Origin: an uncultured Candidatus Saccharibacteria bacterium
GTDB taxonomy: Bacteria; Patescibacteriota; Minisyncoccia; Minisyncoccales; PWPS01
Direction of reading: 5' to 3'
NCBI GenBank assembly: GCA_964544985.1
Contig: CAZJEE010000001.1
Span: 14,314 to 56,577 of the forward strand
DNA: 42,264 bases
Position numbers and translations under genes: made by a program. Numbering within the stretch: position 1 is the stretch's first letter; each line of letters starts with the position of its first letter. The notes beneath the pieces were generated by a model. That model ran no database searches. It saw only the letters and a program-made list of their open reading frames with translations, and was not told the DNA's origin. Below, piece after piece: positions 19,577-21,155 of this stretch.

Positions 19577-19661
19577 AAGACCCAAATTTGTCAGCACCTG
19601 GGTCATGGGTGCTTTGAAGTTAAAACCCGAATTCCAGACTTTAACTTCAGTCGACACTCAA

Positions 19662-21155
19662 AAAGTTAATTATTCCACGGACAGCTTCCGCTACCCGTGC
19701 CTTGTTACAACTTCGTCCCTCTCACTGACTCTACCGTGGTACTTCACTAATGGAAGTGCTTCGGGTATCTCCAGCTCGCTTGACGTGATGGGCAGTGAGT
19801 ACAAGACTCAGGGAAGTATTCATCGCCACGTGATGATTGGCGATTACTAGCGATTCCGACTTCATGAGATCGAGTTGCAGATCTCAATCCGAACTGGGAC
19901 CGGTTTTGAGGATTAGCTCCAACTTACGTTTTCGCAACCTGTTGTACCGGCCATTGTATCATGTGTGCAGCCCAAAGCGTAAGGGTCATGCTGATTTGGC
20001 GTCATCCCCACCTTCCTCCCAGTTGTCCCGGGCAGTCTCCTATGACATATAAAACATAGGATAGGGGTTGCGTATGTTACCGCATTTAAGCGTGCACCTC
20101 ACGGCACATACTGACGACAACCATGCAACACCTGTCTAGTCGTCCCGAAAGAAGGTCACTGTTTCCAGCGACTTTCGCCTAGATGTCAAGCCTTGGTAAG
20201 GTTTCTCGCGTAGCGTCGAATTAAGCCACATGATCCACCGCTTGTGTGAGTCCCCGTCTATTCCTTTGAGTTTTAGCCTTGCGGCCGTACTTCCCAGGCG
20301 GGATACTTAACGCGTTAGCTTCGCCACTTGAAGGGTCGACACTTCAAGAAGCTAGTATCCATAGTTTACAGCGTGGAATACGAGGGTATCTAATCCTCTT
20401 CTCTCCCCACGCCTTCGTTTCTCAGCGTCAGGACCGCCCCAGTTAGCTGCCTTCGCTTTTGGTGTTCCGGTCGATATCAACGGATTTCACCCCTACACCG
20501 ACCGTTCCGCTAACCTCTAACGTCCTCTAGTCTGCCAGTTTTTCCAGCACTTCTAAGGTTGAGCCCTAGAAATTTAACAGGAAACTTGACAGTCCGCCTA
20601 CAAACGCTTTACGCCCAATGAAACCGGATAACGCTTGGGGGTTCTGTATTACCGCTGCTGCTGGCACAGAATTGGCACCCCCTTATTCCTCTTCTACCGT
20701 CATTTAATTCTTCGAAGAGAAAAGCTTTTTACACCCCTTAGGGCTTATCAAGCACGCGGCGTCGCAAGATCAGGGTTTCCCCCATTGTCTATGATTCTCG
20801 ACTGCAGCCTCCCGTAGGAGTAGGGCCCGTGTCTCAGTGCCCTTGTTGGCGGTCAGGCGCTAACCTCGCCTACCCGTCATAGCCTTGGTAAGCCATTACC
20901 TTACCAACTAGCTGATAAGCCGCAGGCCGATCTTCAAGCGGTCCCCAAAGGTTTCCGTTTACTTTTAAGATTCTCATCAAAAAAGACTATCGGGCATTAT
21001 TCTGGATTTCTCCAGGTTATTCCCGTCTCGAAGGTACGTTCCCACGTGTTACTAACCCGTTCGCCGGTAACCTTAACCGAAGTTAAGGCCCCTCGACTTG
21101 CATGCCTAATCCACGCCGCCAGCGTTCATCCTGAGCCAGGATCAAACTCTCTAAA
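19662..21155 (-). rRNA. rrs: 16S rRNA (about 1.5 kb); the 3' end is placed by alignment to E. coli
   Basis: The 5' end is AGAGTTTGATCCTGGCTCAG (revcomp of 21131-21150). The 530 loop reads GTGCCAGCAGCAGCGGTAA. The 3' region is GAAGUUGUAACAAGG followed by helix 45 with a GGAA loop (19676-19699). No insertion is evident. Confidence 0.9.

Follow-up and report, generated by a model that had tools for sequence, protein, structure and literature searches.

How does a ribosome find its start codons when the 16S rRNA lacks its anti-Shine–Dalgarno (anti-SD) motif, which normally pairs with the mRNA? The question is raised by a 42,264-nt stretch of contig CAZJEE010000001.1 (assembly GCA_964544985.1, positions 14,314 to 56,577 of the forward strand), deposited as DNA of an uncultured Candidatus Saccharibacteria bacterium; the whole stretch is referred to here as the window, and all positions are counted from its first letter. 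The 16S rRNA encoded in the window has no anti-SD tail, and the protein-coding genes around it carry no matching Shine–Dalgarno (SD) signal. Both had been noticed in an earlier reading of the letters and open reading frames (ORFs), called here the original prediction, and both were confirmed.

The 16S gene was aligned to the bacterial small-subunit (SSU) rRNA model of Rfam (RF00177), where it scored 1384.5 bits against a gathering threshold of 50, placing it among the bacterial SSU rRNAs with helices 44 and 45 included. In a covariance-model run on the 3′ end, helix 44 closed normally and helix 45 fell at the position first proposed for it, with a GGAA loop on a stem of 10 pairs; two pairs are G.U, and the model flagged no pair as non-standard. 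The 13-nt unpaired tail that follows reads GAAUAAUUAACUU under the consensus GAUcACCUCCUUu; the alignment neither relocated helix 45 nor recovered a CCUCC tail. The first bases 3′ of helix 45 are retained, and AUUAA (19666–19670) sits at the position of the CCUCC core. The original prediction had given this position as UUAAC, which is one base out of register and immaterial to its claim that the core is lost. Its further claim, that the motif has not simply moved downstream, also held: read on the RNA strand, the interval from helix 45 to tRNA-Ile has no CCUCC, CUCC, CCUC or CACCU. Absence of a CCUCC core from the 16S tail is the property by which Lim et al. (2012, PMC3457768) define a non-anti-SD genome, and it is the property of the window copy. 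In an independent metagenome assembly (locus L163, ENA ERZ27315495), a 91-kb contig found through a look-up of the window uS2 is 99.95% identical over 20.7 kb, a stretch that falls inside the window and has the same tail and trailer; a look-up of the window DnaK found no record.

For the protein-coding genes, identities were assigned with Pfam and NCBIfam, which gave a family match for 29 of the 37 ORFs. These include dnaJ, dnaK, grpE, hrcA, ftsQ, murF, a FemAB-like gene, an HD-domain gene, lysS, greA, the PBP2 gene, mreC, mreD, murI, tsf, rpsB, rpmE, prfA, the L25 gene, a class II aldolase, a PfkB kinase, ppsA, a ppaC-like gene, acs, gap, gpmI, eno and ftsZ; the names given earlier agreed wherever they were tested. 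In several genes the family profiles begin at residues 1–4, which confirms their starts, and over-extended TTG starts were corrected from family profiles and ATG codons for rpmE (to 23080) and prfA (to 23339). An SD core was taken as GGAG, GAGG or AGGA beginning at −17 to −8. As the original prediction had said of the starts it read, the motif is missing: no core was found before any of 35 ORFs, and after start refinement before 1 of 37, the sole case being an unannotated 93-aa ORF. The same definition found a core at 42 of 58 annotated starts (72%) in a 42-kb control region of Escherichia coli K-12, and at 21 of 48 starts called there with the same crude ORF caller. Duplex energies pointed the same way. 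With the 9-nt core ACCUCCUUA, the mean for the window was −2.00 kcal/mol against −1.75 ± 0.28 kcal/mol for shuffles, and that for E. coli was −6.69 against −4.30 ± 0.25 kcal/mol, so hybridisation of the window upstream regions to the canonical core is indistinguishable from that of shuffled sequence and there is no excess of SD pairing.

Three candidate results were set aside along the way. An apparent enrichment with the 13-nt canonical probe GAUCACCUCCUUA (z = −3.5) came from self-complementary GAUC matches and hits at the wrong distance, and vanished with the 9-nt core. Loci with canonical tails from the genome scan described below served as a first positive control and gave an SD core at only 19% of starts, owing to crude ORF calls in high-GC (guanine–cytosine) and archaeal DNA; annotated E. 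coli was substituted. A GGGGAG before prfA is not an SD, as it lies 14 nt from the true ATG and is part of a terminator hairpin of rpmE, whose 3′ arm it forms. This hairpin, CUCCCC-UUCCCU-GGGGAG followed by a U-run (23289–23338, plus), resembles an intrinsic terminator and stands after rpmE and before prfA, the gene for RF1.

What the start regions do share is composition. Upstream regions had been described as A-rich, and A makes up 54–69% of positions −6 to −1. It is favoured from −7 to −1 and most of all at −3, where the window has 69% and sister loci have 63%, and in the window it averages 52% over −10 to −1 against 39% further upstream. G drops to 12.5% at −15 to −5, and second codons are A-rich. 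The region from −20 to +20 is also poorly structured: its folding energy is −1.4 kcal/mol, compared with −3.2 to −4.3 kcal/mol for gene interiors (Wilcoxon p = 3e-6), and its GC content is 23%, compared with 32–35% for gene interiors; the window as a whole has 35% GC. Gaps between genes on the same strand are mostly 26 nt or less, or are overlaps.

The state of the tail was then followed across related sequences. One genome per species was scanned with the distinctive helix 44/45 junction as query, which gave 42 loci, and metagenomes were scanned with the helix 45 sequence, which gave at least 120 contigs; with the genome loci added, at least about 135 tails were available. The window helix 45 stem was found in 16 of the 42 genome loci, under Nealsonbacteria and other Patescibacteria labels, and CCUCC followed it in none of the 16; it recurs in at least about 115 to 120 of the metagenome contigs. 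Among the matches listed, 6 of the roughly 135 tails were canonical, and the remainder fell into more than 70 different 14-mers. Two groups could be recognised. The first, with the window-like tail GGAAUAAUUAAY, has 16S identities to the window of 87–98% and includes Candidatus Nealsonbacteria records; this tail occurs in 9 loci of the window subclade. The second, with the tail GGAUCACUACAUUUU, has about 78% 16S identity; one of its members is a closed genome of Nealsonbacteria, L022 (CP179889.1). The tails fall into a graded series, CACCUCCUU, CACUUCCAU, CAAUUCCAA, CAAUUCAAA, UAAUUCAAU and finally UAAUUAACU, that of the window, in which the core runs from CCUCC through CUUCC, AUUCC and AUUCA to AUUAA, a stepwise C-to-A/U decay. 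Tail columns are 30–90% conserved, against 90–99% for the neighbouring helix 44/45 columns.

The nearest labelled 16S sequences come from Candidatus Nealsonbacteria metagenome-assembled genomes (MAGs), with 89% identity for the full-length gene of L032 and 95% for the final 395 nt in L023 and L031. Nealsonbacteria lie in the Parcubacteria group, and by this similarity the window is placed in Parcubacteria. Labels in the databases are less uniform. A Parcubacteria-like 16S 3′ end occurs in a record labelled Promethearchaeota Loki_b32 (L024, NJBH01000039.1), and the same type of 3′ end stands under Candidatus Saccharibacteria labels in L019, L025, L034, L037 and L041; such Asgard and Saccharibacteria labels probably reflect bin contamination or loose MAG taxonomy.

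Loss of the anti-SD is itself known in this part of the tree. According to Tsurumaki et al. (2022, RNA 28:1041, PMC9297842), CCTCCT is detected in only 48% of Parcubacteria, the lineages lacking it overlap with the group lacking uL1, with no strict rule, and SD helices are thought not to form in them; the window itself does not reach the rplK–rplA region. The window resembles that subgroup in having no CCUCCU at the 16S 3′ end and in belonging to the same lineage; the available portion of that paper describes neither the tail sequences nor how far the genes carry SD motifs, and gives no precursor structure or mechanism. Full-text literature searches turned up no further paper that deals with the use of SD in Parcubacteria or Patescibacteria. 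Elsewhere, Lim, Furuta and Kobayashi found 15 of 1,182 genomes to be without an anti-SD motif, in agreement with the earlier claim that genomes lose the rRNA partner less often than they leave an intact one unused. Those genomes, which include Carsonella, Sulcia, Blattabacterium, some Flavobacteria and haemotropic Mycoplasma, show C-to-U/A decay, no SD signal and A-rich starts (PMC3457768), and anti-SD loss has been tied to loss of ribosomal proteins in tiny genomes (Nikolaeva et al. 2021, PMC7782861). The likeness to the present case extends to the decay of the core, the SD-free genes, the A-rich sequence before the start and the association of loss with small genomes and reduced ribosomes. 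The differences are that the window belongs to another phylum, as an independent loss, and that decay here runs across a very large environmental radiation, with 16S identity down to 78% between tail types, instead of a few host-restricted species. Initiation of the Bacteroidetes type is likewise SD-free, with A-rich (A favoured near −3) and unstructured starts as in the window; most Bacteroidetes nevertheless retain an unused CCUCC, which the window 16S does not have. From the Flavobacterium ribosome structure comes the idea that the tail may be sequestered by ribosomal proteins.

Taken together, we consider it very probable that the window comes from a small-genome, Nealsonbacteria-like member of Parcubacteria whose lineage has abandoned SD pairing altogether. 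SD-independent initiation, which the original prediction had proposed as obligate, is the simplest reading and is supported both by decay of the tail across the clade and by the negative tests for a substitute pairing given below. The 30S subunit would find start codons through the unstructured, A-rich and G/C-poor region around the AUG. Protein bS1 probably assists start selection, as proposed for other bacteria that lack the anti-SD or are poor in SD (PMC3457768), and in the packed operons a further contribution probably comes from re-initiation at, or coupling with, a neighbouring or overlapping gene. Decay itself may be the product of relaxed selection and AT mutation pressure, with what constraint remains on the tail coming from precursor rRNA structure and processing instead of mRNA binding.

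Several observations weigh against this reading. Only one rrs copy is visible in 42 kb, so that a canonical second copy could lie elsewhere in the genome, and the mature 16S 3′ end is placed by homology, not by mapping. Among the matches listed, SD cores precede 8.4% of 569 ORFs from loci with decayed tails, against 6.2% ± 1% expected by chance (48 against 35 ± 5.8), an excess that could reflect a few residual SD-like sites or purine clustering; no sharp positional peak was seen among these ORFs. The 6 canonical-tailed relatives in the same matches have SD cores at 4 of 18 ORFs against 48 of 569 for the decayed ones, a comparison that, with too few reliable ORFs, speaks for neither side. Since the shuffles keep composition, a purely compositional contact between A-rich mRNA and a U-rich tail could still occur. 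Finally, the roles suggested for bS1, A-richness and coupling are drawn from composition and the literature.

If the tail no longer meets mRNA, its partner within the precursor becomes of interest. In canonical pre-16S rRNA, the anti-SD forms a hairpin with the internal transcribed spacer (ITS), CCUCCUUUCUAAGGAG, and in the canonical-tailed relatives the tail pairs in this way with a GGAG a few bases downstream, as CCUCCUUUCUAGGGAG. Lineages with decayed tails have changed both arms together, so that the canonical CUCC/GGAG is replaced by UUCC/GGAA, UCCA/UGGA, UUCA/UGAA, UUUC/GAAA or CUCA/UGAG. Mini-hairpins of 4–6 bp, with the partner 3–5 nt downstream, were found in at least about 70 metagenome loci (e.g. 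L053, L055, L054, L059, L118 and L083). Watson–Crick stems of at least 4 bp are present in 73 of 129 unique sequences among the matches listed, against 40.6 ± 4.2 when the downstream parts were permuted, a contrast inflated by the relatedness of the sequences. The support comes from such complementarity counts, as thermodynamic folding mostly predicted the AU-rich mini-hairpins to be unstructured, and no mini-hairpin is evident at the window's own tail. The joint changes of the two arms suggest that a precursor hairpin, and not mRNA pairing, constrains the tail.

Beyond the tail, the precursor keeps the canonical architecture of a long leader–trailer stem that encloses the 16S rRNA. In all 6 related loci that hold both flanks, this stem has 26–29 bp with compensatory substitutions; it has the anatomy of the classical pre-16S processing stem, from which we infer cleavage by RNase III. 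The trailer between the tail and this stem, about 95 nt long, differs from the canonical arrangement in adding a covarying hairpin and a putative pseudoknot, and an Rfam E-value scan of 19450–19950 gave no credible match and no family for the trailer. A conserved box, GUCGAC in the window, reads GUCGAY or GUUGAY in relatives. In the adjacent hairpin, both sides change at 11 of 15 pairs and pairing is kept in 90% of cells, a covariation score that 0 of 500 shuffles reached; its loop palindrome is GAAUUC, GUGAUCAC or AAAUUU, depending on the lineage. The pseudoknot arms in the window were read by eye. Of 18 related trailers, about 11 gave the same interleaved topology in a per-sequence heuristic search, each time from other sequences; for the window itself the search chose a different pairing from the arms read by eye. 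The formal covariation count covers the hairpin, MAFFT having failed to register the pseudoknot arms. The structured trailer (19579–19655) is conserved between lineages with only about 78% 16S identity and was seen in L004, L019, L022, L023, L031–L034, L037, L041, L049, L061, L063, L082, L109, L123, L127, L136 and L158.

The 16S gene also differs from the canonical arrangement in apparently standing alone. With promoter-like sites, the processing stem and a terminator-like hairpin with a T-run, which recurs at the equivalent place in relatives, the stretch from 19470 to 21274 looks like a separate unit, and the 16S gene appears to have a transcription unit of its own.

Table 1. Features of the window, with positions counted from its first letter
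Feature	Position	Strand	Detail or basis
16S rRNA gene, full length	19663–21157	minus	Rfam RF00177, 1384.5 bits, model positions 1–1533
16S 3′ tail, 13 nt, unpaired	19663–19675	minus	aligned under consensus GAUcACCUCCUUu
Helix 45, CACGGGUAGC-GGAA-GCUGUCCGUG	19676–19699; GGAA loop 19686–19689	minus	covariance-model alignment
Protein-coding ORFs (37) without SD, with A-rich unstructured starts	169–42214		
Pre-16S processing stem, leader (5′) strand	21184–21210	minus	27 contiguous pairs
Pre-16S processing stem, trailer (3′) strand	19550–19576	minus	pairs with leader 21184–21210
Conserved GUCGAC box	19650–19655	minus	alignments
Trailer hairpin 1, 15-bp stem, GGAAU loop within a GAAUUC palindrome	19615–19649	minus	minimum-free-energy fold and covariation
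Putative H-type pseudoknot, GCACC-CAU-GACCCA-GGUGC-UGACAAAU-UUGGGUC	19579–19612	minus	arms read by eye
Promoter-like TTGACA-16-TACAAT, between tRNA-Thr and 16S	21247–21274	minus	consensus match only, 11 of 12 positions
Terminator-like hairpin and T-run, between 16S trailer and tRNA-Ile	19509–19532	minus	
Second promoter-like site, TTGAAA-16-TATATT with TG extension, before tRNA-Ile and tRNA-Ala	19470–19497	minus	consensus match only
23S rRNA gene	14060–16977	minus	
5S rRNA gene	13914–14022	minus	

This architecture invites a bolder reading, in which tail and trailer make up a clade-specific module of the precursor rRNA and, in its boldest form, part of the trailer is kept on the mature 30S subunit as a 3′ extension. 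The module may comprise the co-varying mini-hairpin of tail and ITS, the GUCGAC box, the 15-bp hairpin and the H-type pseudoknot, all of which may be enclosed by the leader–trailer stem. An extension of this kind, if real, would take over a role, in the control of subunit maturation or in contacts with mRNA and platform, that usually falls to the anti-SD tail. We regard this whole reading as improbable.

Loss of SD pairing, as preferred here, was also weighed against the replacement of the anti-SD, in which upstream regions would have acquired a motif, for example GUUAAUU or A-runs, complementary to the present tail AAUUAACUUUUU. In its favour, the window subclade partly conserves its tail, upstream regions are A/U-rich with UUAAUU sometimes present, and a pairing of U-rich tail with A-rich leader was raised as an idea for Flavobacteria by Lim et al. 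(2012). When the window genes were scanned for hybridisation to CCUCC and to the actual tail, however, neither rose above shuffles, with z = −0.7 and −0.3 for the real tail. Own tails bound the upstream regions of their loci no better than foreign tails did, with an interaction term of −0.05 kcal/mol (p = 0.22; 92 loci, 544 ORFs and 59 tails among the matches listed), and no U-run is common to the tails. Given also the variety of tails among close lineages and the low conservation of the tail columns, a replacement is very unlikely.

Equally slim is the chance that initiation is mainly leaderless, with mRNAs beginning at or next to the AUG and needing no ribosome-binding site. Most window genes stand in packed arrays on one strand, with gaps of −26 to +26 nt, and their translation must start inside polycistronic mRNAs, so that leaderless initiation could serve operon-first genes at most. 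Initiation of this kind is known to do without SD (as discussed in PMC3457768), and AT-rich start regions could conceal −10 boxes.

Patescibacteria usually have a single set of rRNA genes. This counts against the suspicion that the tail is artefactual or non-functional, whether as a mis-assembled end, a 16S pseudogene or a divergent copy beside a canonical rrs, which the single rrs copy in the window and the metagenomic origin of the material might otherwise feed. The gene is matched over its full length at a high score with helices 44 and 45 intact, and it sits in an intact unit with a promoter-like site, a covarying processing stem and a terminator-like hairpin. The same sequence occurs in an independent assembly, and the feature recurs across many samples on more than 120 independent contigs, the closed genome L022 among them; we give an artefact scarcely any credence. 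Least credible of all is a displaced anti-SD, moved downstream by an insertion after helix 45 or belonging to a mature 3′ end far from the homology prediction: the trailer is long and structured, and insertions are known in rRNA genes of the Candidate Phyla Radiation (CPR; PMC9297842), but the motif is missing as far as tRNA-Ile, the trailer strand of the processing stem closes a precursor within which nothing resembles an anti-SD and so excludes one further downstream, and trailers of relatives also lack the motif, save for a lineage-specific insert with CUCCU in L014, which is not conserved.

Anti-SD loss is common to a large group of tiny-genome Parcubacteria and is already published, which makes the window a well-documented example and no discovery. 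Four features were not found described in the published passages covered: the graded decay series, a tail that co-varies with its partner in the precursor, a trailer with structure of its own, and a 16S gene that apparently forms a separate unit. The last three appear new. SD pairing is the textbook mode of bacterial start selection, and a radiation without the rRNA partner is therefore a natural experiment in SD-free translation, with a bearing on how reduced ribosomes find start codons. In practice, gene callers with a score for ribosome-binding sites have to allow for genomes without an anti-SD, and the expression of Patescibacteria genes in a heterologous host depends on the way in which their starts are recognised. 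The decay series, the compensatory precursor hairpin and the structured trailer offer handles for studying maturation of the 16S 3′ end.

Some minor features of the window were also noted. Strand asymmetry over 1–42264 is strong: the plus strand has far more C (8978) than G (5974), and the minus strand carries 34 of the 37 ORFs and every rRNA gene. The region of the 515F primer (20640–20660, minus) reads GUGCCAGCAGCAGCGGUAAUAC, against ...GCAGCCGCGG... in the Rfam consensus, a mismatch through which common 16S amplicon primers could under-detect the lineage. The rRNA genes are loosely linked: tRNA-Thr stands upstream of the 16S gene and tRNA-Ile and tRNA-Ala downstream, and three protein ORFs (17312–19263) separate tRNA-Ala (19283) from the 23S gene (16977). 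Of the three, murI is encoded on the plus strand, one ORF of 93 aa matches no family, and the remaining one has a mechanosensitive-channel transmembrane-helix domain. In L014, L032 and L033, an ORF starting MTNW, MTDW or MNDF follows the 16S gene, and comparison with these sister loci suggests that the gene arrangement of the rRNA region is conserved.

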